A DNA stretch of 64,000 nucleotides, taken from NCBI GenBank assembly GCA_965227515.1, contig CBDDFZ010000001.1:3904001-3968000 (forward strand), in the 5' to 3' direction. Shown here one piece after another: positions 39,789 to 54,401 of this stretch (position 1 is its first letter; the number at the start of each line of letters is the position of its first letter). A program made the position numbers and the translations under genes. Source of the DNA: Alphaproteobacteria bacterium. GTDB lineage: Bacteria > Pseudomonadota > Alphaproteobacteria > CALKHQ01. The notes beneath the pieces were generated by a model, which saw only the letters and a list, made by a program, of their open reading frames with translations, made no database searches and was not told the DNA's origin.

Positions 39789-40714
39789 GTCGGAGACGTA
39801 TCCCTCAATGCTTCCAGTTCCTCGATGGTGCGCGGCCAGTCCTTCTTCAGAAGGCGCGACAGCGACCGGTCGGCCAGCACCTTGCCCCCGGTCTGGCAAC
39901 GCGGGCAATAGTTGGTTTCGTTGTCGGCGTAACGGATGCGCTGCACCTTGGTATCGCACACCGGGCACGGCTGGCCGTACTTGCCGTGAACGGCCATCTC
40001 CGGCCGGAACGCGGTGACCTTCTCGGGAAACTTGGTCCGCGCCTCGGCGCCCAGCCGGTCGCACCACAGCGCCAGCGTGTCCTGCACCGCCGTGTGCAGG
40101 CGGTCGATCTGGTCGCCGTCGAGCTTCTGGGTCATCGCCACCGGCGACAGGCCGGCGGCGTGCAGGATCTCGTCGGAATAGGCATTGCCGATGCCGCTGA
40201 ACAGCCGCGGGTCGGTCAGCGCCCGCTTCACCGTATGGTTGGCGGCGGTCAGCCGCTCGGTGAAGGCGTCGCGGGCGAGACCCAACGGCTCGATGCCGCC
40301 GGGGTCGAGGGCGGCCAGCCCCGCCTCCCCCGCCGCCAGATGCAGCGAGGCGCGGCGCTTGGTGCCGGCCTCGGTCAGCACCAGCGACCCAGAAGAAAAG
40401 TCGAACGCAGCCAGCCCCTGCTTGCCGCGTGGGATCGCCGCCCCTTTCGGCTTCCAGTGCAGACGGCCGGCAATCATCAGGTGCAGCACCAGCCAGATGT
40501 CATCGCCGTCTCCAGCCAGCCCGATGGCGATGCGCTTGCCGACCCGCCTGAGGCCCGACACCCGCCTGCCCTTCGCGTCCGAAACCGGCGGCTGGACCGA
40601 GCGCAGCAGGAACGGGTTGGCGATCCGCACATCGTCCAGGGTCGCGGCCGGGTCGCCAAGCAAGTGCGGCTCAAGTGCCGTGAGATAGGCCTGGATGTCG
40701 GGCAGTTCCGGCAA
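39785..40714 (-). CDS. Fpg/Nei family DNA glycosylase
   Basis: N-terminal PELP, H2TH GIGNAY, zinc finger CPVC...CPRCQ. Confidence 0.88.
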
Positions 40715-40730
40715 TGGGCGCCTCTTGGAA

Positions 40731-42155
40731 TTATTTCAGCGCGTATGGCACCGCGTCGCGCCGGGCCGGGTCAAGCAGGATCGCGCGGTCGATGGGCGGG
40801 AACGCGCGCTGCGGGCATTTCGGCCGCTCGCAGATGCGGCAATTCACGCCGATCTTGACGTAGGCGTTGTCGTCCTTGAGGTCGAGGCCGGAGGCATAGA
40901 CCAGGTCGCCGGCATGGGCGAGCTCGCAGCCGAGCCCGATGGCATAGCGCCGGTCCGGCTCCAGATAGCCGCGCCCGCGCTTTACCACCGAGCGCGAGAT
41001 GCACAGATAGCGCGCGCCATCCGGCATCTCGGCGAGTTGCACCAGGAAGCGGCCGGGCGTGACGAATGCCTGGTGCACGTTCCACAGCGGGCAGGTGCCG
41101 CCGAAGCGCGCGAACTGGAATGGCGTGGCGCTGTGCCGCTTGGTGATGTTGCCGGCCTGGTCGACCCGCACGAAAAAGAACGGCACGCCCCGGCTGCCCG
41201 GCCTCTGCAGGGTGCTCAGCCGGTGGGCGACCTGTTGCAGGCTGGTGCCGAAGGCGAGTTGCAGGCGCTCCAGATCGTGGCGGACCGCGCGCGCCGTCTC
41301 CAGGAACCGGCCATAGGGCATCAACAGCGCGCCGGCGAAATAGTTGGCCAGCGCCACCCGGCAGATCGCCTGGGCGTCGTGGCTGGTGAGCCCGGATGCG
41401 GCGACGATATCGTCGAGTTCGTCGGCCAGGCTCAACAGCCCGATGTGGTGGGCGAGCATGAAGGCGATGCTGGCCCGGTCCAGCGCCGGGTTGACCGCGA
41501 TCGCGCGCGCCTTGGCGTCGAAACGCCAGAACTGCTGGGCGGAAGGGTCGTCCAGCCCGGCGTCGACCCGCACGTCGAGCGCATCGCGCAGATGGTCGGC
41601 CAGCAGGCGGGTTGCGTCGTCGCCGCCAAGCCCGATGCGCCCCGACAAGGTCTCGGCCGCGCGGTCCAGCGTGTCGATGTAGTTGTTGTGGTAGTGGAAG
41701 TAGTCGCGCACCTCCTCGTAGGGCAGCATGGCGGCGTCATGCGCGCCCTCCGGCGACGTCAGACTCTCGTCCACCGCGCGCAGACGCTCGCGCAACCGGT
41801 GGGTCTCGCTGTGGAGCAACAAGAGGCTGCGCGCCACGTTCGGCGCCACCGAGACCGCCTGTTTCACCTCCTGCAAGCCCGGCGCCTGGCCGGCGAACAG
41901 CGGATCGGTCAGGGTCTCGCGCAGGTCGGCGACGATGCGCTCGTGATCGTCCTCGGCAAACTCGCCGACGTCGATGCCGAAGGCACGGCTCAGCGCCACC
42001 AGCACGGTCGCGGTCACCGGGCGCTGGTTGTTCTCGAGCTGGCTGACATAGCTGAGCGAAAGGCCCAGCCGCTCGGCGAGATCGGCCTGGGTCAGCGCGC
42101 TGTCCTGGCGCAGGCCGCGCAACTTGTGGCCGAGGAACAGTTTGGCGTCGTCCAA
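40731..42155 (-). CDS. prpR: Short-chain fatty acyl-CoA regulator (PrpR/RamB/ScfR family)
   Basis: XRE HTH ([12 protein letters not shown]), [32 protein letters not shown]; divergent from prpD. Confidence 0.85.
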
Positions 42156-42175
42156 GGGCGCATCCTCGCGGCAAT

Positions 42176-42216
42176 CTTCGCAATTTCACAACTTCACGCT
42201 TGTGAATTGTGCGAAG
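42176..42216. promoter_or_regulatory. Probable PrpR operator
   Basis: Imperfect inverted repeat CTTCGCAATTTCACAA / TTGTGAATTGTGCGAAG made of TTTGCAAA-like boxes, in the divergent prpR-prpD gap. Confidence 0.55.
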
Positions 42217-42335
42217 TTTACAACATGGCCATTTCAACACAATCCCGAATTGCGCCGCGCCGCGATTTGGGGATTATGGCCGCCATCGGCCGGCTGGCCC
42301 GGCTGCGACGTCGTCACAGATCGGAACCGCGCGCC

Positions 42336-43853
42336 ATGAAGACATACAACGTCACCGTCCATCCCGAGGCCGAGCGGCTGCCCAAGGCCGACCAACTCGC
42401 CTACAAGATCGCCGAGGTCGCCGCCGACCCGGTGCCGCTGGACGACGACGTGGTCGACATGATCATCAACCGCATCATCGACAACGCCTCGGTGGCAATG
42501 GCGGCGATCAATCGCCGGCCGGTTGCCACTGCGCGGGCGCAGGCAGTGGCGCACCCACGGGCCAGCGGCGCCACGGTGTTCGGTGTGTCGAAGGACGCGC
42601 GGTTCAGCCCGGAGTGGGCGGCATGGGCGAACGGCACCGCGGTGCGCGAACTCGATTTCCACGACACCTTCCTGGCCGCCGACTATTCGCATCCCGGCGA
42701 CAACATCCCGCCGATCCAGGCGGTCGCCCAGACCATGGGGTCCGACGGCCAGGCGCTGCTGCGCGGCATCGCCACCGGCTACGAGATCCAGGTGAACCTT
42801 GTGCGGGCGATCTGCCTGCACAAGCACAAGATCGACCACGTCGCCCATCTGGGCCCGTCGGCGGCCGCCGGCATCGGCACGCTGCTCGGCCTGGACGTCG
42901 ACACCATCTACCAGGCGGTGCAGCAGGCGCTTCATGTCACCACCGCCACCCGCCAGTCGCGCAAGGGCGAGATTTCGAGCTGGAAGGCGTTCGCGCCCTC
43001 CCACGCCGGCAAGCTGGCGATCGAGGCGGTCGACCGGGCGATGCGCGGCGAAGGCGCCCCCTCCCCGATCTATGAGGGCGAGGACAGCGTAATCGCCTGG
43101 ATGCTGGACGGGCCGGACGCCGACTACCGGGTGCCGATGCCCGGCCCCGGCGAGGCCAAGCGCGCGATCCTGGACACCTACACCAAGGAACACTCGGCCG
43201 AATACCAGAGCCAGGCGCTGATCGACCTCGCCTTCGACATGGGCAAGAAGATCGAGGCGAAGACCGGCGGCGACTGGGACCAGGTGGAGAGCATAGTGCT
43301 CCACACCAGCCACCACACCCACTACGTCATCGGCACCGGCGCCAACGACCCGCAAAAGATGGACCCGACCGCCAGCCGCGAGACGCTGGACCATTCCATC
43401 ATGTACATCCTGGCCGTCGCCCTGCAGGATGGGCGCTGGCACCATGTCGACAGCTACGCGCCGGAGCGTGCGGCCCGCGCCGACACCGTGCGGCTGTGGC
43501 ACAAGATCAGCACGGTAGAGGACCCGAAGTGGTCGATCCGCTACCACGCCACCGACCCGGAGGATAAGGCGTTCGGCGGCAAGCTGGTGGTGACCCTGAA
43601 GGACGGCACCGTGCTGGAGGACGAGCTGGCGGTCGCCAATGCCCACTCGCTGGGCGCCCGCCCGTTCGCGCGGCCCGACTACATCAACAAGTTCAAGACG
43701 TTGTGCGCGGGCACCGTGCCCGCCGACGAGCAGGAGCGGTTCTTGGCCGCGGTGCAGCGCCTGCCCGACATGGGCCCGGCCGACCTGGGCGAGCTGACCG
43801 TACAGTTGGACGATGCCGCGCGCACCGACAACACGGCGAAGGGGATATTCTGA
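42336..43853 (+). CDS. prpD: 2-methylcitrate dehydratase (MmgE/PrpD)
   Basis: [33 protein letters not shown]. Confidence 0.9.
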
Positions 43854-44746
43854 TGCTGTTCAGCCAGAAACTCGCCGGCGACAAGCGCGCGGCCTTTCGC
43901 GCCGCACTCGCCTCCGGGCGGCTGCTGCAGTTCCCCGGCGCGTTCAACCCGCTGGCGGCGATGTCGATCCAGAACCACGGCTTCGACGGGGTCTACATCT
44001 CCGGCGCCGTGCTGTCCGCCGACCTCGGCCTGCCCGACATTGGACTCACCACGCTGACCGAAGTGTCGGGCCGGGCCGAGCAGATCGCCCGGGTCACCGA
44101 CCTGCCCTCCATCGTCGATTGCGATACCGGGTTCGGCGAGCCGATGTCGGTCGCCCGCTCGATCCGCACCATGGAGGAGCGCGGGCTGGCAGGCTGCCAC
44201 CTGGAGGACCAGGTGGCACCGAAGCGTTGCGGCCATCTCGACAACAAGTCCGTGGTCGGCATCCCGGAGATGGCGATGCGCCTGCGCGCCGCTGTCGACG
44301 CACGCCGCGACGCCAACTTCGTGATCATCGCGCGCACCGACAGCCGGGCGATGGAGGGGCTGGACAAGGCCATCGACCGGGCCAAGGCCTATGTCGATGC
44401 CGGCGCCGACATGATCTTTCCCGAAGCGATGGCCGACGAGAGCGAGTTCGAGGCGATGCGCAAGGCGGTCGATGTGCCGCTGCTCGCCAACATGACCGAG
44501 TTCGGCAAGTCCGAGCTGCTGACCAAAGACGCGCTGGAGGGCCTGGGCTACAACATCGTGATCTACCCGGTCACCCTGCTGCGGCTGGCGATGGGCGCCA
44601 CCGAGCGGGGGCTTGCCGAGATCAAGGCCCAGGGCACGCAGGCCGGCCTGCTGGACCAGATGCAGCACCGCCGCGACCTCTACGCGCTGCTGCGCTACGA
44701 GGACTACAACGCGTTCGATCAGTCGATCTACAACTTCAAGGTTTGA
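43853..44746 (+). CDS. prpB: 2-methylisocitrate lyase
   Basis: DCDTGFG, EDQVAPKRCGH, ARTD, ANMTEFGK. Confidence 0.93.
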   Translation: MLFSQKLAGDKRAAFRAALASGRLLQFPGAFNPLAAMSIQNHGFDGVYISGAVLSADLGLPDIGLTTLTEVSGRAEQIARVTDLPSIVDCDTGFGEPMSVARSIRTMEERGLAGCHLEDQVAPKRCGHLDNKSVVGIPEMAMRLRAAVDARRDANFVIIARTDSRAMEGLDKAIDRAKAYVDAGADMIFPEAMADESEFEAMRKAVDVPLLANMTEFGKSELLTKDALEGLGYNIVIYPVTLLRLAMGATERGLAEIKAQGTQAGLLDQMQHRRDLYALLRYEDYNAFDQSIYNFKV

Positions 44747-44778
44747 GGCCGGCTGCAAACTCGGTTCTGAAAAAGACC

Positions 44779-44866
44779 GTCATGCCCGCACTTGTTGCGG
44801 GCATCCACGAGATGGCGGCAAAGCCGCCAACAAGACGTGGATGGTCGGGACAAGCCCGACCATGAC
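44779..44866. repeat. REP-like family A doublet inside the prp operon
   Basis: GTCATGCCCGCACTTGTTGCGGGCATCCAC ... GTGGATGGTCGGGACAAGCCCGACCATGAC. Confidence 0.85.
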
Positions 44867-44891
44867 AGTGGTTGTGTGAGGGAGAGGAAAC

Positions 44892-46022
44892 ATGGCGAGC
44901 GACGGAGAAGACATCAAATACGGGCTGGCGGGCGTTCTGGCCGACGAGACCGCGGTCTCCAAGGTGATGCCGGAGACCAACTCGCTGACCTATCGCGGCT
45001 ATGCGGTGCAGGACCTGTGCGCCGCGCGCGACTTCATGGACGTCGCCTACCTGCTGCTGCACGACGACCTGCCCGATGCCGCCCAGCGCACAGCGTTCTG
45101 CGCCAAGGAGGCCGGCTACCGCGCGCTCAGCGACGACTGCCTGACGCTGATCGGCATGTTCAACACCGCCGCCCACCCGATGGACACCCTGCGCACCGCG
45201 GTCAGCCTGCTGGGCGTCGAGGACGACACCACCAACGACAATACTGTCGAGGCGGACCTGGAAAAGTCGATCAAGCTGTTGGCGCGCATCCCCACCATCG
45301 TCGCCGCCGACTTCCGCCACCGCCATGGCAAGGCGCCGATCGCGCCCGATCCGGCGCTCGGCTATTGCGAGAACTTCTTCAATATGTGCTTCGGCGAGGT
45401 ACCGCCGGCCGAGGTCATCCGCTGCTTCGACATCTCGCTGATCCTCTATGCCGAGCACAGTTTCAACGCTTCCACCTTCACCGCGCGCACCATCACGTCG
45501 TCGATCTCCGACCTCTATTCGGCGATCACCGGCGCCATCGGCTCGCTGAAGGGCCCGCTGCACGGCGGCGCCAACGAGGCGGTGATGCATGTGCTGCTGG
45601 AGATCGGCTCGCCCGACAACGCCGAGCCCTGGCTGCGCAAGGCGCTGGCCGAGAAGCGGCTGATCATGGGCTTCGGCCACCGGGTCTACCGCAGCGGCGA
45701 CAGCCGGGTGCCGACCATGACCGCCGCCTTCCACGACATGGCGAAGCTGCGCGACGGCGAGAAGTGGATCGAGATTTCCGACGTATTGTCGAAGATCATG
45801 ATCGGCGAGAAGGGCATCCACCCCAATCTCGATTTCCCCACCGGGCCGGCCTACTATCTGATGGGCTTCGACATTCCCATGTTCACGCCGATCTTCGTGA
45901 TGTCGCGGATCACCGGCTGGGCCGCCCACGTGCTGGAGCAGCGGGCCAACAACAAGCTGATCCGCCCGCTCAGCGCGTACAACGGCGTGCCGCAGCGCCC
46001 GGTGCCGCCGCGGGAGGGGTAG
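44892..46022 (+). CDS. prpC: 2-methylcitrate synthase
   Basis: AEHSFNASTF, GPLHGGANE, GFGHRVY, PNLDF, KLIRP. Confidence 0.92.
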   Translation: MASDGEDIKYGLAGVLADETAVSKVMPETNSLTYRGYAVQDLCAARDFMDVAYLLLHDDLPDAAQRTAFCAKEAGYRALSDDCLTLIGMFNTAAHPMDTLRTAVSLLGVEDDTTNDNTVEADLEKSIKLLARIPTIVAADFRHRHGKAPIAPDPALGYCENFFNMCFGEVPPAEVIRCFDISLILYAEHSFNASTFTARTITSSISDLYSAITGAIGSLKGPLHGGANEAVMHVLLEIGSPDNAEPWLRKALAEKRLIMGFGHRVYRSGDSRVPTMTAAFHDMAKLRDGEKWIEISDVLSKIMIGEKGIHPNLDFPTGPAYYLMGFDIPMFTPIFVMSRITGWAAHVLEQRANNKLIRPLSAYNGVPQRPVPPREG

Positions 46023-46040
46023 GCGACTATTAAGCTTCCC

Positions 46041-46128
46041 GTCATGCCCGCACTTGTTGCGGGCATCCACGAGATGGCGGCGAAGCCGACAAGAAGACGT
46101 GGATGCTCGGGTCAAGCCCGAGCATGAC
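46041..46128. repeat. REP-like family A doublet
   Basis: Same left arm as 44779 and a similar central GATGGCGG..AAGCCG loop. Confidence 0.85.
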
Positions 46129-46185
46129 GAAAGGTGGTTTTGGCCAGTGCTGACGACAAATGCTCGGCCAGGGAGGGAAACGACC

Positions 46186-48081
46186 ATGAGCGAACGCTTC
46201 GATGCCGTGTATCGGCGCGCGCACGACGATCCTGAGGCGTTCTGGGCCGAGGCCGCCCAGGCGGTCGACTGGATCTCGCCCTGGGAGCGGGTGCTGGACG
46301 ACAGCGACGCGCCGTTCTACCGCTGGTTCACCGGCGCCACCCTGAACACCTGCTACAACTGCGTCGACCGCCATGTCGCGGCCGGGCGCGGCGACCAGGC
46401 GGCGATCATCCACGACAGCCCGATCACCGGCAGCCAGCGCACCCTCACCTACGCCGAGCTGCAGGACCAGGTCGCGCGTTGCGCCGGCGCGCTGAAGGAC
46501 ATCGGCGTCGCCTATGGCGACCGTGTGATCGTCTACATGCCGATGGTGCCGGAGGCCGCCATCGCCATGCTGGCCTGCGCGCGCATCGGCGCGATCCATT
46601 CGGTCGTGTTCGGCGGCTTCGCGGCCAAGGAGCTGGCCACCCGCATCGACGACGCCAAGCCGGTCGCCATCGTCTCCGCGAGCTGCGGCATCGAGCCGGG
46701 CCGGGTGGTCGAGTACAAGCCGCTGCTGGACGAGGCGATCGAACTGGCGACGCACAAGCCGACGAGCTGCCTGATCCTGGCCCGCCCCCAGGCCGCCGCC
46801 GCGCTGATCGACGGCCGCGACCACGACTGGAACGACGCGCTGGCCGCCGCGACGCCGGCCGACTGCGTGCCGGTGAAGGCGACCGACCCGCTCTACATCC
46901 TCTACACGTCGGGCACGACGGGGCAGCCCAAGGGCATCGTGCGCGACAATGGCGGCCATGCGGTGGCGCTGACGTGGTCGATGAAGAACATCTACGACGT
47001 CAATCCCGGCGACGTGTACTGGGCGGCGTCCGATGTCGGCTGGGTGGTCGGCCACTCCTACATCGTCTACGGCCCGCTGCTGCACGGCTGCACCACCATC
47101 GTCTATGAGGGCAAGCCGGTCGGCACGCCGGACGCCGGCGCGTTCTGGCGGGTGATCGCGGAGCACGGGGTCGCCGCCATGTTCACCGCCCCCACCGCGA
47201 TCCGCGCGATCAAGAAGGAAGACCCCTCCGGCGCGCGGCTGAAGGACTACGACCTCGGCAAAATGCGGACGCTGTTCCTGGCCGGCGAGCGCTGCGACCC
47301 TGACACGCTGAACTGGTGCGAGGAGATCCTGGGCCTGCCGGTGATCGACCACTGGTGGCAGACCGAGACCGGATGGGCCATCGCCGCCAACTGCGTCGGC
47401 ATCGAGCGCCTGCCGGTGAAGCCGGGTTCGCCGACCCGCGCCGTTCCGGGCTACGACGTGCAGATCCTCAACGAGGCCGGCGAGCAGGTCGGTGCCAACG
47501 AGATCGGCAACATCGTCGTCAAGCTGCCGCTGCCCCCCGGCACCCTGCCCACCCTGTGGGGCAACCGGGAGCGCATGCGGCAATCCTATCTGTCGCGCTA
47601 TCCCGGCTACTACCTGACCGGCGACGCCGGCATCGTGGACGACGACGGCTACATCCACATCATGAGCCGCATCGACGACGTCATCAATGTGGCCGGCCAC
47701 CGGCTGTCGACCGGCGCGATGGAAGAGGTGCTGTCCAGCCACCCCGCGATTGCCGAATGCGCGGTGTTCGGCGTCGACGACGCGCTGAAGGGCCAGGTGC
47801 CGGTCGGGCTGGTGGTCATCAAGGACGGGGTTGGCCAGGCGCCGGGCGACATCGTCAGCGAATTGCTGGCCAAGGTGCGCCACGACATCGGGCCGGTCGC
47901 GGCATTCAAGACCGCGGCCGTGGTGGCGCGCCTGCCCAAGACCCGGTCCGGCAAGATTCTGCGCGGCACCATGCAAAAGATCGCAAACGGCGCCGACTAC
48001 CAGGTCCCCGCCACCATCGACGACCCGGCGATCCTCAGCGAGATCGAGACAACGCTGTCAGGCATCGGCTACCCCAAGTAG
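46186..48081 (+). CDS. prpE: Propionyl-CoA synthetase
   Basis: YTSGTTGQPKG, WWQTETG, PKTRSGKILR; prp operon context. Confidence 0.88.
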   Translation: MSERFDAVYRRAHDDPEAFWAEAAQAVDWISPWERVLDDSDAPFYRWFTGATLNTCYNCVDRHVAAGRGDQAAIIHDSPITGSQRTLTYAELQDQVARCAGALKDIGVAYGDRVIVYMPMVPEAAIAMLACARIGAIHSVVFGGFAAKELATRIDDAKPVAIVSASCGIEPGRVVEYKPLLDEAIELATHKPTSCLILARPQAAAALIDGRDHDWNDALAAATPADCVPVKATDPLYILYTSGTTGQPKGIVRDNGGHAVALTWSMKNIYDVNPGDVYWAASDVGWVVGHSYIVYGPLLHGCTTIVYEGKPVGTPDAGAFWRVIAEHGVAAMFTAPTAIRAIKKEDPSGARLKDYDLGKMRTLFLAGERCDPDTLNWCEEILGLPVIDHWWQTETGWAIAANCVGIERLPVKPGSPTRAVPGYDVQILNEAGEQVGANEIGNIVVKLPLPPGTLPTLWGNRERMRQSYLSRYPGYYLTGDAGIVDDDGYIHIMSRIDDVINVAGHRLSTGAMEEVLSSHPAIAECAVFGVDDALKGQVPVGLVVIKDGVGQAPGDIVSELLAKVRHDIGPVAAFKTAAVVARLPKTRSGKILRGTMQKIANGADYQVPATIDDPAILSEIETTLSGIGYPK

Positions 48082-48429
48082 CCCCCGACCGCAGCCAGCC
48101 TGCCCGACCCGCGGTCCGCCGCCCATTGTGCCGGCATCGGTAACGACCGGCCGACAACGACATCGCACGGTTGTGCGATTGTCCGGACAACGCCTTTTCC
48201 AACCTTACGTCTCGTTCAGGCAACGCATTACGCTTGCACGCGCCTCCACTATTGGTGTTACACAAAGCTGTGACACAAGAGTGTTACGAATCTGGGCAGG
48301 CGGGGGGAAGCTGGCATCGCAGGCGAATGATGCTAGGCGGGACATTAGTCGCGCATGAAACGGATACAATAGCGCGCGCTCGTTCTACTTCCTCGCGGCC
48401 ACCCATGTGCAATGGAAAGGCGGGGAAGT

Positions 48430-49416
48430 ATGACCTTTACAACACCATCTACTCCAATGTTGAGTGACGGCGCCGACGGTTCGGCCGCGCGCCATATCTC
48501 CGACCGCTACGATGCCCGTGTGGTCGACAATCTACGCAATGCGGCGGCCCAGGCGGCGCAGTTCGCGACACCCTTCGACGACTGGAAGGGCCTTACCGAG
48601 CTTGAGCTTGCCTACGATCGCACCTATGGCGCGTTGTGGCTGTATGCCTGCCCGTCGGGCCGGCCGAGCTCGACACCGCAACTGCTCCACGACATGGTCG
48701 CCGTCTTCGACCAGATCGAGGAAGCGCACACGTCTGGCGCAACCCGGGCCGCACCGCTGAAATGGCTGATCACCGCGTCGGGCGTGCCGGGCATCCTGCA
48801 CCTGGGCGGCGACCTGAAGCGGATCGTCGAAATCGTGCGCGATTGCGACCGTGACTCCCTGATGGACTATGCGCGGCTGTGCATCGACGTGGTGTACGCG
48901 CGTCTGGCCAAGCGCAACATGCCTTACATCAGCATCACCCTGGCACAGGGCGACACCTTGGGTGGCGGCTTCGAGGCCGTGCTGGCCGACGACGTCATCA
49001 TCGCCGAGAAGCAGGCGCGTTTCGGCATGCCCGAAGCCCTGTTCAATATGTTCCCGGGCATGGGTGCGCTCAGCTTCCTGACCCGCCGGGTCGGACAGCG
49101 GCTGGCCGAGGAGATCGTGTTCAGCGGCTCGATCTACAGCGCCGCGCAGATGCACGAGATGGGCGTGGTCGACATTCTGGTCGAGGACGGCACCGGCGAG
49201 GATGCGGTCGACGAGTTCATTCGCTCGATCGGGCGCAGCTACAACTCGCGGCGCAGCGTCTATGCCGCGCGCGGGCTGACCAACCCGGTCACCTACGAGG
49301 AACTGCTGGGCATCACCACCATGTGGGTGGACACGGCGATGGCGCTGGACGCCAAGGACCTTCGCCGGATGGAGCGTTTGGTGGCGGCGCAAGACAGGAG
49401 ATTGGCTCAGATGTAA
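48430..49416 (+). CDS. rpfF: DSF/BDSF synthase (crotonase family, RpfF)
   Basis: LGGDL, GGGFEA and GMPEALFNMFPGMGA.SFL.R catalytic glutamates; C-terminal WVDTAM...RMERLVAAQ as in RpfF; convergent with an rpfC homologue. Confidence 0.85.
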   Translation: MTFTTPSTPMLSDGADGSAARHISDRYDARVVDNLRNAAAQAAQFATPFDDWKGLTELELAYDRTYGALWLYACPSGRPSSTPQLLHDMVAVFDQIEEAHTSGATRAAPLKWLITASGVPGILHLGGDLKRIVEIVRDCDRDSLMDYARLCIDVVYARLAKRNMPYISITLAQGDTLGGGFEAVLADDVIIAEKQARFGMPEALFNMFPGMGALSFLTRRVGQRLAEEIVFSGSIYSAAQMHEMGVVDILVEDGTGEDAVDEFIRSIGRSYNSRRSVYAARGLTNPVTYEELLGITTMWVDTAMALDAKDLRRMERLVAAQDRRLAQM

Positions 49417-49686: not shown

Positions 49687-52293
49687 TTAGGTCTTGCTGT
49701 CCGAGCCGCCCTGGCGCGCCCATCGTTCGCGCAGGGTCTGGTCATACAGCGACAATTGCGTGCGCAGGCTGGGCAGCGCATCGGCCATGAACGCCACCAC
49801 CTGGGTGCGCCGCTGCTGCGACAGTTCCGAGCAGATCGCCTGGATGCGCGCGGCGCCGACATGGGCCGAACTGCTCTTCAGGGCGTGCGACGTGTCGCGA
49901 ACGCCGCCGATATCGCGCTCCGCGACCGCGCGCTCCAGGTCGTCAAGCAACTGCCCGGCATCCTCGACATACTCGGTCACCAGTTCGCGGACGAACGAAC
50001 CGCCATTGTCCAGCGCCGACAGGCTTTGCAGCGAATGCTCGTCGACCACCGGGCGCGCGGTCATGCGGAAACGCGGATGGGAGCTCAAGTCGGCGACCTG
50101 GGTGTCGTCCACCGCGCCGCTGGACAGCCTGTCTGCAAAAGTCTCGACCGGGTCCAGGCGTGGGCTCGATGCCGGTGCTGGCCGCGCCGGCGTGGCGGGC
50201 ACTGGCGTTGCGGCCAGTGCGCCGCCCGTGCCCAGTGCAGTCCCAGGTGCGGTTCCAGGCGCGGTGCCATTCGCGCAGTGATCGAGCACACGGATCAGGT
50301 GCTCCGCCTCCACCGGCTTGGTGACGAATGCATCCATGCCGGCCGCCTTGCAGGCCCGCTCGGTGACCGTGGTGGCGTCGGCGGTCAGGGCGATGATCGG
50401 CAGTCGCGGCTGCGGCCCCACCTCGCCCATGCGGACTTCCTTGGCCACATCGATGCCGGACGTGCCGGGCATGTTGACGTCGAGCACCAGGATTTCCGCG
50501 TCGAACTCCGCCAATGCGTCCAGCGCGGCCTCGCCGTTCTCAACCAACCGCACCTCGTGACCGGCCTGGCGCAGGATCATCGCCGTCACCCGGCGGTTCA
50601 CGGCATTGTCCTCGGCCACCAGAACACGCAGCGGTCGCTGCGCCTTGGTGTCGGCCGTGCGTTGATCGATATCGTCGGCAAGGGCGTCGCCGGGGGCACA
50701 GCGCGCACCGAGCCGCGCCGCGGCCTGGATCAGGTCGCCATCGACAGGCTCGGTCACCGCGCAGTAGACCCCGGTGCGCAGCGTGGGCAAGGCCGTGGCG
50801 GTCCACGTGGCCGGCACCACCAGGGCGCCGCGGAACGGTGTCTCGATGGAGTCGATGGCCGTCCCCTGACCTGCATCCTGGTCCCGAATGCTCAGCACCA
50901 CCTTGTCGGGGCTGCCGCCGCTTTCCGCCACCAATTCGAGCCCAAGGTCGCCGGCAAGGGCCGCCACCCGCCCCCGCAGCCGGTCGTCGGAGACCCGCAG
51001 GCGAAGGCCCTCCGGCCGGACCGGTGCCTCGGTGTGGGCCGACACGCTGGCCGGCCGGATCGGCAACTCCATCCAGAAGCGGCTGCCGGCACCGACTTCG
51101 CTGTCGACGCCGATACGTCCGCCCATCAGGTCGGTCAGTTGCCGGCAGATCGCAAGACCCAGGCCGGCGCCGCCATAGCGCCGGCTGGTCGCCTGATCCT
51201 CCTGCGTGAACGGCTCGAAGATATGGCGCTGGGCGTTGGCGTCGATGCCAATGCCGGTATCGATTACGTCGAAGGTCATGCGCGGCGGCGCGTTATCGCG
51301 GGTGACGAGCCTGCAGCAGACGCGCACATAACCCTTCTCGGTGAACTTGATGGCGTTGGCGACCAGATTGGTCAGGATCTGGCGGATGTAGTGCGGCGCG
51401 CCGCGCATCCACGGATCGATCCGCCCATCGATCACGAACTGCAGCCGCAGGCCACGCTCCGTGCACTGCGGCTCCAGCATGCGGTAGAGCTCGACCAACT
51501 CGCCGTTCAGGTCGAAATCGACCTCGTCCACCGGCATGCGCCCAGCCTCGATGCGGGAGAAATCGAGAATCTGGTCGATGTTCGCCAGCAAGGTGCGCGC
51601 CGACGTGCCAATGGTGCGCGTCATGTCGCGCTGCTCCGCGCTCAGGCTGGTCTTCTGCATCAGGCCGCCGATGCCGATGATCGCATTCAGCGGCGTGCGC
51701 AGCTCATGGCTCATGGTGGCCAGGAACTGGCCCTTGGCGTTGCTCGCCGCCTCGGCCTGCAGCTTGGCTTCGGTCAGCTTGCGGATCAGGGTGGAAACGT
51801 AGGCGGGCAGGACGACCAGGGCCGCCAGCAGACCCGCCGACGTGGTCATGTTGTCGTGCCAGTACGGCGACAGCCAGACGACGGCGCCGAAACCCAGCAG
51901 GCTCCCCATCGCGCTCAACGCCAGATACCGGTTGCCGTAGCGGAAGCCGTTACCGAAGGTGACCCACAGGTAGACCAGATAGATCATCGCCGTGGCCGAC
52001 CCCCACCAGTACATGGCGAACGACGTGATCGCGATGTCGGCCACCATGCCGAGCAGGCGGCGGGCTGGATTGGGGTCCGGGTCGGCAGCGATCCAGGCGA
52101 TGAAGCCCAGGGAGACGGTTACGTAGACGGCGATGGAGACAACGGTGACGACACGGTCGCCGGACGCGCCCGCGCCGGCAACCTCCAGAACGCCAAGATA
52201 GACGGCAACCAGACTGACGATGACCAGGCGCACGAACGCCTGCTCGTGCTCGCTATCTGCCCGTCCCCGGAAGCGATCCAAAATGTGTCGCAC
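49687..52293 (-). CDS. rpfC: DSF sensor hybrid histidine kinase (TM-HisKA-HATPase-REC-HPt)
   Basis: N-terminal RGRADSEH, about five TM helices with WVTFGNGFRYG, MSHELRTPLN, AEDN / LDVNMP receiver, HALKSSS HPt. Confidence 0.85.
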   Translation of the reverse strand: MRHILDRFRGRADSEHEQAFVRLVIVSLVAVYLGVLEVAGAGASGDRVVTVVSIAVYVTVSLGFIAWIAADPDPNPARRLLGMVADIAITSFAMYWWGSATAMIYLVYLWVTFGNGFRYGNRYLALSAMGSLLGFGAVVWLSPYWHDNMTTSAGLLAALVVLPAYVSTLIRKLTEAKLQAEAASNAKGQFLATMSHELRTPLNAIIGIGGLMQKTSLSAEQRDMTRTIGTSARTLLANIDQILDFSRIEAGRMPVDEVDFDLNGELVELYRMLEPQCTERGLRLQFVIDGRIDPWMRGAPHYIRQILTNLVANAIKFTEKGYVRVCCRLVTRDNAPPRMTFDVIDTGIGIDANAQRHIFEPFTQEDQATSRRYGGAGLGLAICRQLTDLMGGRIGVDSEVGAGSRFWMELPIRPASVSAHTEAPVRPEGLRLRVSDDRLRGRVAALAGDLGLELVAESGGSPDKVVLSIRDQDAGQGTAIDSIETPFRGALVVPATWTATALPTLRTGVYCAVTEPVDGDLIQAAARLGARCAPGDALADDIDQRTADTKAQRPLRVLVAEDNAVNRRVTAMILRQAGHEVRLVENGEAALDALAEFDAEILVLDVNMPGTSGIDVAKEVRMGEVGPQPRLPIIALTADATTVTERACKAAGMDAFVTKPVEAEHLIRVLDHCANGTAPGTAPGTALGTGGALAATPVPATPARPAPASSPRLDPVETFADRLSSGAVDDTQVADLSSHPRFRMTARPVVDEHSLQSLSALDNGGSFVRELVTEYVEDAGQLLDDLERAVAERDIGGVRDTSHALKSSSAHVGAARIQAICSELSQQRRTQVVAFMADALPSLRTQLSLYDQTLRERWARQGGSDSKT

Positions 52294-52299
52294 GAATAG

Positions 52300-53958
52300 T
52301 CATTCTCCAGAACTCGGCGTCGACGCTTGATTGGCAGTCAAGACACGCGCCGCGGGAAAAGTTGCGACAACCGTTGTGCCTTCGCCGACTGAACTTTCGA
52401 TATTCAGCTTTCCACCATGCAATTCCGTTAATTCGAGGGCCAAAGAAAGCCCAAGGCCGGCCCCCGGCTTCGGAGTATTTCCGGGGCTGCGCAGCCGGCC
52501 AAACCTGGCCAAAGCGAGCTTGACGTCGTCTTCGGCGATCCCGATGCCCTCGTCGGCCACAGCCACCGTCAGATCGCCGCCTTCGGCCAACGCGGACGCG
52601 ACCTTAACATGGCCGCCCTGTGTTGAAAACTTCACGCCGTTCGATACCAGGTTCGACAAGACTTGCTTGAAACGCCGCTCGTCGGCCCAGAGTTCCAGCG
52701 ACGGGTCGACGTCGATCTCGATCGTCACTTCCAAGTCCTCGGCCTTGGCCTCGAAAAACCGCACGACGTTGCGCACCACGTCCCGCACCGAGAATCTCGA
52801 TTCGACCAGGCTAAGGCGCCCGCTCTCTATCTGCGAAATATCAAGTATATCTTCGATCAGCCCCAGCAGGTGCTCGGCACTGCCCAGAATGTCGCCCGCA
52901 TATTCCTTGTAGCGCATGGTCCCGACCGGCCCCAGAAGCTCGGTCGAAAGCACCTCGGCGAATCCGATGATCGCGTTCAGCGGCGTGCGCAGCTCGTGGC
53001 TGGTGTTGGCGAGAAATTCCGACTTGCTACGGTTCGCGAGCTCGGCCGCGAGCTTCGCATCCAGCAGCACGGTCTCGGCCCGTTTCTGCTCGCTGATGTC
53101 GACCGAAACCGTCAGCACCTCGTCGGAGGGGCCATCGCCCTGTAGCAGTGGCAGCTTGGTGGTCTTGAAGCTGACCACCCGGCCGTCGCTGTCCTCCAGC
53201 TCCTCCTCGAACATGCATATGGTCTCGCCGTCCAGTATACGACGGTCGAAGACACCATGGTCGCTACCGCCCCGCGGCAGGCCGATGCTGTCCCAATGCT
53301 GGCCGACGATGGGCGTGCCCAGCGCGAAGAACTCCTCGCACGCACGGTTTGCCATCGTGATGTACCCGGTGGCATCGCGCACGGTGATCAGCGCCGGCAG
53401 CCCATTGATGACCGCGTTCAGCCGGTCCTCCGACTGCCGCAACTCATCGGCGCGCAGCTTGTTGGTGACCTGAAGCCGCTCTTCCAGGCTGACGGCGCGA
53501 CGCCGGATGATCTCCTGCTGATGGCGCAAGGTCAGCAGATTGCTGATTCGCGCCCGGAACTCGCGGTGGTCCAGCGGACTGATCAGGAAGTCGGTGGCGC
53601 CTGCATCCAAGGCGCGGTACCGGAGCTCGCGCTCCTCGTAGACGGTGACCACGACCACCGGCACGTCGAAGCAGTTCGGCATCGCGCGCAATCGGCGAAT
53701 GAAATCGGCGCCGTCCATCGACGGCATCTTGAAATCGGTGATGACCAGATCCGGCGGATTGCGCGAAATCCACTCCAGCGCCGGGCTCGGGCTGTCGAAG
53801 GGCTGGACCTGGACACGCGCGCTCAGGCTAGAGGCAAGCTTGCCCAGGACCGCGCGGTTCGTCGCCCGGTCGTCGACGATGACGATCACCGGCAAGGTGG
53901 CCGTCCGGGTCTGAACCGGCAACCGCGTGACGAGTTGAGGACCTTGTGCCGGAGTCAT
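52300..53958 (-). CDS. REC-PAS-histidine kinase with an RpfG-like receiver domain
   Basis: IVDD...TDFKMPSMDG receiver, RARISNLLTLR...AVSLEERL linker, PAS ending SVDISEQK, TSHELRTPLN, NLVSNGVKF, GAGLGL; start uncertain. Confidence 0.85.
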   Translation of the reverse strand: MTPAQGPQLVTRLPVQTRTATLPVIVIVDDRATNRAVLGKLASSLSARVQVQPFDSPSPALEWISRNPPDLVITDFKMPSMDGADFIRRLRAMPNCFDVPVVVVTVYEERELRYRALDAGATDFLISPLDHREFRARISNLLTLRHQQEIIRRRAVSLEERLQVTNKLRADELRQSEDRLNAVINGLPALITVRDATGYITMANRACEEFFALGTPIVGQHWDSIGLPRGGSDHGVFDRRILDGETICMFEEELEDSDGRVVSFKTTKLPLLQGDGPSDEVLTVSVDISEQKRAETVLLDAKLAAELANRSKSEFLANTSHELRTPLNAIIGFAEVLSTELLGPVGTMRYKEYAGDILGSAEHLLGLIEDILDISQIESGRLSLVESRFSVRDVVRNVVRFFEAKAEDLEVTIEIDVDPSLELWADERRFKQVLSNLVSNGVKFSTQGGHVKVASALAEGGDLTVAVADEGIGIAEDDVKLALARFGRLRSPGNTPKPGAGLGLSLALELTELHGGKLNIESSVGEGTTVVATFPAARVLTANQASTPSSGE

Positions 53959-54401
53959 AAGCCGTCTAGCGCTAGGCGAAAGCGACACCCCACCCACAAT
54001 GCCCTGGCTAACTGAGCGTCCACCAAGGCTGCAACTCGCCGCTTCGCCTTCTCAAGATAGCAGTTCGCCACCCTCAATCAAACTATTCCGCCCAATCGGC
54101 AGCCCGCGATGGGCCAAAAACGCACCGGGTTCCGCCGTCGAAGCGCCTATCGGCGGGCAACGGGCATCCCCACGTATGCGGCTCGGCGGTCCGGATGTCG
54201 CGCCCGCCAGCGGAGTCGCAGCGCCGTGCCGACAGGCGCGCGACGTCCGGTGGGTGCCGACTTGACAGCCGTGGGCAATCGCCCGCAACATCCCGGTTGC
54301 AGAACACTCCGTTCGCGACAGCGTGCACGGCAACAGTCGGTACGTGGCCTGGTCCGCCGGGTCGGCAGCGCGGCGGTCTGATGGGGGAGCGCCGAGTAGC
54401 G

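Follow-up and report, generated by a model that had tools for sequence, protein, structure and literature searches.

In the Xanthomonas-type rpf cluster, the rpfGHC genes are convergent with rpfF, and phosphotransfer runs from RpfC to RpfG, as outlined in excerpts of PMC4504480. In the literature covered, signaling by diffusible signal factors (DSFs) is ascribed mainly to xanthomonads, to Burkholderia, and to a number of further bacteria, and a 2026 abstract calls DSFs a gammaproteobacterial family (PMC13711827). Here we analyzed a 64,000-nucleotide (nt) stretch of an alphaproteobacterial genome (the window; assembly GCA_965227515.1, contig CBDDFZ010000001.1, positions 3,904,001 to 3,968,000 of the forward strand). 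It contains a gene for a protein with a receiver (REC), a PAS_4 domain, and a HisKA/HATPase core, hereafter termed the kinase protein. This gene probably takes the response-regulator-like role in an alphaproteobacterial signaling cluster of the DSF type (rpfF/rpfC-like), in which the histidine phosphotransfer (Hpt) domain of the RpfC-like kinase would phosphorylate the receiver and thereby gate a second-tier kinase. Its components and logic match those of RpfF/RpfC/RpfG, except for an output domain and one catalytic residue that differ throughout the family.

A real RpfG reference was obtained by searching 400 genomes of the phylum and the window's own genome with the RpfF equivalog model NF053515 (cut-off 550). 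Two genomes scored above the cut-off, G399 (583 bits) and G189 (579 bits). Locus L086 of G399, examined by tblastn with three window proteins, has rpfF convergent with rpfC, a gene similar to only the RpfC input region, and a gene for a 379-residue REC-HD-GYP protein, which was taken as RpfG. This layout equals the published rpfF / rpfC-rpfH-rpfG arrangement. Residues 25-196 of the kinase protein were 39.5% identical to L086 RpfG over 172 amino acids (aa) (tblastn), and the alignment extended past the receiver into the linker. L086 RpfG has DFLVKP where the kinase protein has DFLISP, and its linker is very close to the RpfG linker quoted in the first-pass annotation of this DNA. When genomes were searched with receiver plus linker, the RpfG gene reached 123.7 bits in G399 (next receiver, 55.1), 125.7 bits in G082 (next, 50.5), and 120 bits in G312 (next, 71.1). 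G084, which has rpfF- and rpfC-like genes and no RpfG-type receiver, gave a best match of 59.4 bits. In the reverse search of the window's genome with L086 RpfG, the kinase gene came first (113 bits), showing that the two are reciprocal best hits. A Lys-bearing REC-GGDEF protein was second (108 bits), and the next receiver reached 68.6 bits. The HD-GYP half of L086 RpfG matched a different gene of the window's genome. With the receiver alone, no RpfG-specific NCBIfam model was among the 25 models listed of 75; PleD was first, with 74.9 bits against a cut-off of 474.

The relationship was also seen in a REC tree of 68 receivers (49 from the window's genome and 19 external; 112 columns, LG+G4, unrooted). 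Support is given below as the Shimodaira-Hasegawa-like approximate likelihood ratio (SH-aLRT) followed by the ultrafast bootstrap (UFBoot). The receivers lacking the conserved Lys fell into one clade of 17 tips (SH-aLRT 96.4, UFBoot 99). This clade was part of a 21-tip clade (86/96) that also held the REC-GGDEF paralogue, two RpfG receivers, and the REC-HD-GYP protein of G312, and that excluded 47 other receivers of the window's genome. The first-pass annotation had noticed that receiver and linker echo RpfG, and had named failure to cluster with RpfG receivers as an argument against this. The alignment, the reciprocal best hits, and the shared clade all agree with its view, and receiver plus linker can be assigned to the RpfG type by homology. 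The REC-GGDEF protein is encoded outside the window by a 396-aa open reading frame (ORF) at C1:1342002-1343192 (minus strand). It has DFLKKP and stands next to the Lys-less clade; possibly, it is a candidate partner or target in the same pathway.

The genes next to the kinase gene match those of an rpf cluster. The stop of the kinase gene is followed, after 7 bp, by the RpfC-like gene. Its product was 36.9% identical to L086 RpfC over 450 aa, from residue 2 to residue 442 and with the input region included. As the alignment begins at residue 2, the homology extends to the input region; its hydrophobic segments were assigned by hydropathy only. The Hpt His of the RpfC-like protein was invariant in 12/12 sequences. 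The RpfF-like crotonase passed model NF006452 (327 bits, cut-off 177) and was 41% identical to L086 RpfF over 252 residues. Glu is kept in all seven aligned sequences at the columns of L086 RpfF E142 and E162, which we take to be the catalytic pair.

In a class survey of 400 genomes plus the window's own, 21 of the 401 had a match at E <= 1e-80, the window's genome and G623 counted; G623 enters into this count alone. Sixteen full-length family loci (39-59% identity) were compared. The RpfC-like gene lay directly downstream on the same strand in 15/15 assessable loci (the 16th ends at a contig edge), and the RpfF-like gene was convergent beyond it in 12/12 assessable loci (three end at contig edges). 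Two loci, L001 and L002, were taken from a contig scan; one of its two patterns was a general H box, and few of its 80 loci are family members. Variants of the arrangement were also found. In G583, a receiver-PAS gene is divergent from the RpfC-/RpfF-like pair, and three further alphaproteobacterial genomes have, in the slot of the kinase gene, REC-PAS-GGDEF-EAL proteins with the same Ser in the receiver. The gene can be assigned, from homology and gene order, to a conserved three-gene alphaproteobacterial signaling cluster. It occupies the slot of RpfG beside rpfC- and rpfF-like genes and has an RpfG-type receiver; therefore, homologous receivers appear to carry different outputs.

The receiver differs from RpfG at the conserved Lys. 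According to excerpts of PMC12632262, this Lys and a conserved Thr each bind one phosphoryl oxygen. A receiver profile built from the six-frame ORFs of the window's genome gave 52 receiver domains in total, including 49 that are close to full length. Lys is present in 47 of these 49, and the kinase gene has Ser. The one other Lys-less receiver is degenerate, with Asn at the Lys column and the Asp also gone. The kinase protein retains the DD pair (D29, D30), D75, and T105, which corresponds to the canonical phospho-receiver set minus the Lys at the end of beta5. In a family alignment of 32 members, D29, D30, R31, N34, D75, T105, Y107, S127, and P128 were invariant, and the position three residues before the Lys column (K-3) was aromatic in 32/32. 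Ser was found at the Lys position in 120/120 of the best full-length family matches listed. These results confirm the replacement of the Lys (DFLISP) with retention of DD and the phospho-accepting Asp, as reported in the first-pass annotation, and show that it is not a peculiarity of this gene. The exchange appears to be an ancient, fixed trait of the receiver clade. The residue after the DD pair was Arg in 107 of the same 120 matches and Gln in 10 (3 were unmatched by the pattern). This Arg is absent from RpfG and other Lys-bearing relatives, and we speculate that it might stand in for the lost Lys charge.

The kinase motifs are complete. H321, N436, N440, D469, G471, G473, G499, G501, and G503 were invariant among the 32 relatives, as were S320 and E322 beside H321, and the protein appears to have a complete HisKA-type core with the H box His and the N, G1, and G2 residues. 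The invariance of DD, D75, T105, H321, and the N, G1, and G2 residues (32/32) points to live phosphochemistry. The Ser most likely retunes the kinetics of phosphorylation or dephosphorylation rather than abolishing them.

The family is large. A search of 5.8 billion proteins gave 7664 matches at E <= 1e-10 among 8000 scored candidates, and the best 120 all carried REC, PAS, HisKA, and HATPase. Full-length relatives were found at 45-60% identity; the top matches had 56-60% identity over 95-98% of the query, and those with a recorded source came from alphaproteobacterial metagenome-assembled genomes (MAGs). Receiver plus linker was also used against 1.84 billion cluster representatives, with 291 matches at E <= 1e-30. 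We kept 66 of the 150 listed representatives (at least 300 aa, motif found, no Lys) and set aside 84 that were below this length, carried the Lys, or lacked a match to the pattern. In the 66, the Lys position is taken mostly by Ser, with some Thr, Asn, or single other residues. According to a Pfam tally, the output was a kinase (HisKA, HisKA_2, HWE, or HATPase) in 30/66, GGDEF and/or EAL in 25/66, and HD or HD-GYP in 0/66; the remaining 11/66 were REC or REC-PAS only, several of them apparently truncated. Most of the 66 have PAS_4 at approximately residues 164-274, at the same distance after the receiver. Since PAS_4 follows the Lys-less receiver in proteins with varied outputs, the conserved unit is "Lys-less receiver - long linker - PAS_4," to which different outputs can be attached interchangeably.

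Two relatives have deviating architectures. In P0165 (1592 aa), the Lys-less receiver, GGDEF, and EAL are joined to a later HisKA/HATPase; it may represent the regulator fused to the RpfC-like kinase, or a gene-calling read-through. The window's genome also encodes a 540-aa paralogue outside the window (C1:2211975-2213597, plus strand), which has 38% identity across residues 64-541. Its N-terminal region is receiver-like but degenerate and precedes a PAS domain and a kinase core; the gene is not beside rpf-like genes.

The structure of the kinase protein was predicted with AlphaFold2 using a 32-sequence alignment, as a monomer model of a presumed dimer (mean predicted local distance difference test [pLDDT] 81.5; predicted template modeling score [pTM] 0.41). 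The model has a receiver fold at residues 24-125 and an uninterrupted helix (131-186) that connects REC alpha5 with the PAS domain (189-287). Another long helix (289-340) runs on to the DHp hairpin and is followed by the ATPase domain with a low-confidence lid (485-502). The nearest solved structures were PAS-kinases (a WalK model, LOV-kinase chimeras, VicK) and kinase cores, and LvrB (8vc9) was also listed, among the sequence matches as well as the fold matches. A complex of the Hpt domain with the receiver was predicted with a score of 0.49 (best control, 0.01), with contacts at least 96% shared between runs and a partner pLDDT of at least 83. The mark used for this score is reached by 116/157 solved complexes and 2/215 mismatches, and passes of 0.60 or below are often wrong. 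The prediction lends weak support to an Hpt-receiver complex; since structures of Hpt-REC complexes already exist, the pass may be due to likeness alone.

We propose that the RpfF-like crotonase makes a cis-2-enoic fatty-acid signal, as its homology suggests. The RpfC-like membrane kinase would sense this signal and, judging by its architecture and homology, relay phosphate from His via Asp to the Hpt His. From there, D75 of the REC-PAS-kinase receiver would be phosphorylated, as synteny and the homology to RpfG suggest. According to the predicted structure, the phospho-state may then travel along helix 131-186 and, by way of the PAS domain, reach the DHp, switching the kinase/phosphatase balance at H321. 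The output would go to a response regulator encoded elsewhere.

Several observations weigh against this proposal. The node joining the Lys-less clade and the REC-GGDEF paralogue to RpfG has a support of only 61.4/69. The crotonase reaches 211 bits with the RpfF model NF053515 (second-best model), well below the cut-off; therefore, the signal could differ from known DSFs. Locus L001, from a Stellaceae MAG, has the kinase and RpfC-like genes, and no RpfF-like match was found in its flanks at E <= 1e-3. In the window and at 13 related loci, the regions up to approximately 5 kb from the cluster contained no receiver gene besides those of both kinases, suggesting that the target of the kinase is encoded elsewhere. 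One of the five catalytic residues of the receiver is gone, which makes it a pseudo-receiver by the definition given in excerpts of PMC12632262. Finally, the unusual codon composition at the 3' end of the gene (see below) is not accounted for.

The lost residue leads to a different view of the receiver, namely, that it is a true pseudo-receiver that is not phosphorylated without Lys and serves as a docking or dimerization module (e.g., by binding the RpfC-like kinase or locking a kinase state), with the PAS domain as the real input. The absence of Lys from all 120 best-listed relatives fits this view, as do the various substitutes among the 66 representatives, and unphosphorylated pseudo-receivers regulate hybrid kinases, ShkA and CikA among them (excerpts of PMC12632262). 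However, the same source states that receiver reactions need not be lost when DD, T, or K is changed and that pseudo-receivers frequently lose T and the K-3 aromatic residue. DD, D75, T105, and the K-3 aromatic residue are all kept in the family, and an Hpt-bearing partner adjoins in every assessable locus. We consider an unphosphorylated docking domain unlikely and, because T and the K-3 aromatic residue are retained, favor a phosphorylatable receiver with altered kinetics as the more probable case. It is also conceivable, and compatible with the proposed phosphorelay, that PAS_4 binds the fatty-acid signal, making the kinase a coincidence detector that integrates this signal with the RpfC-like phosphorelay. 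RpfS (through PAS_4) and RpfR (through its PAS domain) are reported to bind DSF in excerpts of PMC4159695 and PMC4504480; PAS_4 is found at the same spacing in most Lys-less representatives, whether with kinase or GGDEF/EAL outputs, and the sibling REC-PAS-GGDEF-EAL proteins hold the same slot in three rpf-like loci. Yet, the PAS domain is the least conserved part of the protein, with 44% identity to the sister genus compared to 80% for REC and with only 8 invariant columns (13 sequences). Moreover, a sequence search of the PDB with the PAS domain found no relative below E 0.005, and a PAS-only model (pLDDT 86.9) matched generic PAS, LOV, and heme-PAS domains, with no DSF-binding PAS domain prominent. 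Signal binding by PAS_4 is a doubtful addition to the phosphorelay. An idea joining both aspects, which we regard as rather improbable, is that the Ser-for-Lys receiver plus PAS_4 forms a distinct ancient module, in which phosphate from the RpfC-like Hpt is accepted with altered chemistry via the hydroxyl, perhaps aided by the near-invariant Arg behind the DD pair, and the fatty-acid signal is read by PAS_4. If true, such modules would be coincidence detectors that route DSF-type quorum sensing to a second kinase tier or, among the siblings, to cyclic di-GMP (c-di-GMP) turnover across Alphaproteobacteria.

The codon composition concerns another explanation, a recent chimera, in which the kinase end or last third was acquired from a donor with lower G+C content, explaining the AT-richer codons. 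The first-pass annotation had described the 3' kinase part as AT-richer, with rare codons such as TTA. Its count for 52381-52440 (28 G+C of 60) is exact, and TTA is indeed codon 510 (the genome's long ORFs use it approximately 0.29 times in 1000 codons). The G+C content of the gene is 0.628 (3.5% of 1991 long ORFs are as low), and that at third codon positions (GC3) is 0.796 (11% as low). GC3 is 0.85 in REC plus linker, 0.86 in PAS, 0.79 in HisKA, and 0.71 in HATPase; in 50-codon windows, it varies between 0.72 and 0.90 until approximately codon 475 and then falls to 0.62 and 0.50. The deviation is thus limited to the end of the ATPase domain and does not extend over the whole kinase part. There, the last 75 codons have a GC3 of 0.573, compared to 0.832 in the rest. 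Among 2778 long ORFs, 0.36% have a tail this low, and 0.25% have a drop this large, showing that the shift is beyond ordinary genome variation. Of the 47 rare codons (relative usage < 0.1) in the gene, 26 are located after codon 385 and 19 in the last 75. Six orthologues have no comparable drop (GC3 of last 75 codons/rest: 0.89/0.91, 0.91/0.95, 0.77/0.85, 0.79/0.79, 0.69/0.72, and 0.84/0.93). The low-GC3 tail is a real, lineage-specific outlier. It is not an assembly artifact, since contigs from four other public DNA runs (close relatives) that cover parts of the 3' end had 3 differences in 492 bases, 0 in 296, and 4 in 295.

These composition data and a slight preference in BLAST of the kinase half for distant family members (best, 261 bits) over the sister-genus group would fit a foreign kinase end. 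However, when 33 members were placed in a likelihood tree, the kinase half grouped as sister with the orthologues of the sister genus (SH-aLRT 91), with two long branches of 0.65 each, and the N-terminal half shows the same grouping (SH-aLRT 100). The agreement of the two trees argues against a domain swap since the family's ancestor, and a recent swap or foreign kinase end was rejected on this ground. The BLAST ranking is accounted for by the length of both tree branches. Further identities to the sister genus are 69% (linker), 72% (HisKA), and 46% (HATPase); the low values of the ATPase and PAS domains appear simply to reflect faster evolution. In addition, the ATPase part is unremarkable in GC1 and GC2 (first and second codon positions), no catalytic motif is disrupted, and the tail abuts the start of the RpfC-like gene, whose first 50 codons also have reduced GC3 (0.74-0.78). 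A recent chimera is therefore highly improbable, and the kinase protein was, as far as the trees indicate, inherited vertically within the family. The GC shift had been taken as a sign of a domain swap, which does not hold in view of the trees. From that swap, there remain the homologous receivers with different outputs; an event of recent date does not fit an architecture common to a large family at 45-60% identity, and, the trees being unrooted, HD-GYP may have been replaced or the change may have gone in the reverse direction. At the junction with the RpfC-like gene, GGAG is located inside the last codons of the kinase gene, 12 nt before the GTG of the RpfC-like gene. Selection on translation initiation at this operon junction would be a plausible reason for the low-GC3 tail. 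The junction (52230-52380) folds like shuffled sequences (z = 0.34), and Rfam gave no matches at E <= 1 in 51800-54400. A simple scan found no consensus sigma-70 promoter in 52000-54300, which is no evidence of absence.

The coordinates of the kinase gene, its parts, and the two neighboring genes are compiled in Table 1. An alternative upstream GTG at 53997, 39 bases 5' of the ATG, would add 13 residues (565 aa); the sister-genus orthologues start at the position matching the ATG. All four Pfam domains scored above their respective cut-offs, and no HD or HD-GYP domain was found by Pfam in the kinase protein. In line with the first-pass annotation, the receiver and linker run into PAS and HisKA/HATPase, and both peptides quoted there are present in the translation.

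Table 1. Features of the kinase gene and of the neighboring RpfC-like and RpfF-like genes (positions in the window)
Feature	Position	Strand	Residues or details	Basis
REC-PAS_4-HisKA-HATPase gene	52300..53958	-	552 aa from ATG at 53958; stop codon 52300-52302	ORF, Pfam, relatives
Response_reg (Pfam)			38-151 (565-aa numbering)	78.9 bits
PAS_4 (Pfam)			198-306 (565-aa numbering)	45.8 bits
HisKA (Pfam)			324-393 (565-aa numbering)	71 bits
HATPase_c (Pfam)			439-550 (565-aa numbering)	90.3 bits
Receiver	53539..53889	-	24-140	Pfam, invariant columns, AlphaFold2 strands and helices 24-125
Putative receiver active site	within 53539..53889	-	DD = D29/D30, phospho-acceptor D75 (codon 53734-53736), T105	Invariant columns
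Ser at conserved receiver Lys position	53578..53580	-	Codon 127 (AGT)	Profile alignment, codon reading
RpfG-like linker	53401..53538	-	141-186	RpfG alignment to residue 196; AlphaFold2 helix 131-186
PAS_4 domain	53095..53400	-	187-288	Pfam, AlphaFold2 models, generic PAS matches in PDB
DHp/HisKA helices	52825..53094	-	289-378; H321 (codon 52996-52998) in H box	Pfam, invariant residues, helices 289-340 and 348-378
HATPase (CA) domain	52336..52800	-	387-541	Pfam HATPase_c 90.3 bits, invariant residues
Low-GC3 tail	52303..52527	-	Codons 478-552	GC3 0.573; 19/75 codons with relative usage < 0.1
RpfC-like hybrid kinase	49687..52293	-	868 aa; hydrophobic multi-pass input, HisKA, HATPase, REC, Hpt	Pfam, homology, hydropathy
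RpfF-like crotonase	48412..49416	+	334 aa; convergent with both kinase genes	NCBIfam matches

At positions 52936-53009, which encode the H box, metagenome contigs at 80% likeness piled up to 1293, 428, 20, and 96 in four runs. The rise amounts to orders of magnitude in two runs (1293 and 428) and is approximately ten- to thirty-fold in the other two (20 and 96); it is ascribed to conservation of the H box at the DNA level in kinases of other organisms. Among the public runs listed as containing this DNA, none was an RNA run. Directly upstream of the RpfF-like gene, methylcitrate-cycle genes are located at 40695-48081 on the plus strand. They include a 1052-aa ORF with MmgE/PrpD domains, in which approximately 560 N-terminal residues are without a Pfam match, as well as genes for a citrate-synthase family protein and for an AMP-binding enzyme of the acetyl/propionyl-CoA synthetase type. 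The other flank of the cluster contains unrelated metabolic and transport genes.

Outside the window's genome, two further arrangements were observed. In locus L085 of G019, a second RpfC-like gene (L085:12307-13506; 37% identity over residues 4-412) is located beyond the RpfF-like gene; by homology, this locus appears to have two RpfC-like sensors. Loci L099 and L100 (G084 and G049) and many other genomes of approximately 2 Mb in family f73 have RpfF-like genes (230-260 bits) beside RpfC-like genes. In the f73 genomes, the pair occurs without an RpfG-type receiver (best match in G084, 59 bits).

A description of an rpfF/rpfC cluster with a receiver-PAS-kinase, or of the Lys-less receiver clade, was not found in the literature covered (Creative Commons PMC papers and bioRxiv). 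The results suggest that an rpfF/rpfC-like pair is conserved in diverse Alphaproteobacteria, with output via a second histidine kinase rather than via c-di-GMP hydrolysis. If this is true, fatty-acid quorum sensing would connect to a further phosphorylation network. The receiver clade can also be seen as a natural experiment, in which a large family fixed Ser at the phosphoryl-binding Lys and kept all other catalytic residues. As such, it bears on what the Lys is needed for and on the boundary between receivers and pseudo-receivers.

To turn to the closest systems already described, the REC-HD-GYP protein RpfG, encoded in rpf clusters of the Xanthomonas type, shares with the kinase protein the homologous receiver and linker and the clade in the REC tree. 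The gene position is also the same, upstream of rpfC and convergent with rpfF, as described in excerpts of PMC4504480. The two differ in output, which is an HD-GYP phosphodiesterase in RpfG and PAS_4, HisKA, and HATPase in the kinase protein, and at the Lys (DFLVKP versus DFLISP); none of the 66 Lys-less representatives combines its receiver with HD-GYP. RpfS of Xanthomonas campestris (XC_2579) is, like the kinase protein, a cytoplasmic PAS_4 histidine kinase, tied to DSF, as a second sensor of it, according to excerpts of PMC4159695. Compared by that description, it differs in being a hybrid kinase of 955 aa, in which a receiver is combined with several PAS/PAC domains, and in being encoded away from rpfF/rpfC.

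The sibling REC-PAS-GGDEF-EAL proteins share the Lys-less receiver, the linker, and PAS_4 (40-46% identity over residues 22-299), have the same neighbors, and nest inside the Lys-less clade; their output would be c-di-GMP turnover, not a kinase. RpfR of Burkholderia (PAS-GGDEF-EAL) likewise has c-di-GMP turnover as output and has no receiver, as far as described in excerpts of PMC4504480. LvrB of Leptospira (PDB 8vc9, "hybrid response regulator") resembles the kinase protein in having an N-terminal receiver before a HisKA/HATPase core. However, the superposition is weak (TM-score 0.26, query-normalized; 0.37, target-normalized), and the LvrB chain of 378-382 residues is, judged by its length, too short for an additional PAS domain. 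With K missing, the receiver of the kinase protein fits the computational definition of pseudo-receivers found in excerpts of PMC12632262. It differs from them in that DD, D, T, and the aromatic residue at K-3 are retained throughout the 32 relatives and in that a putative Hpt donor adjoins.

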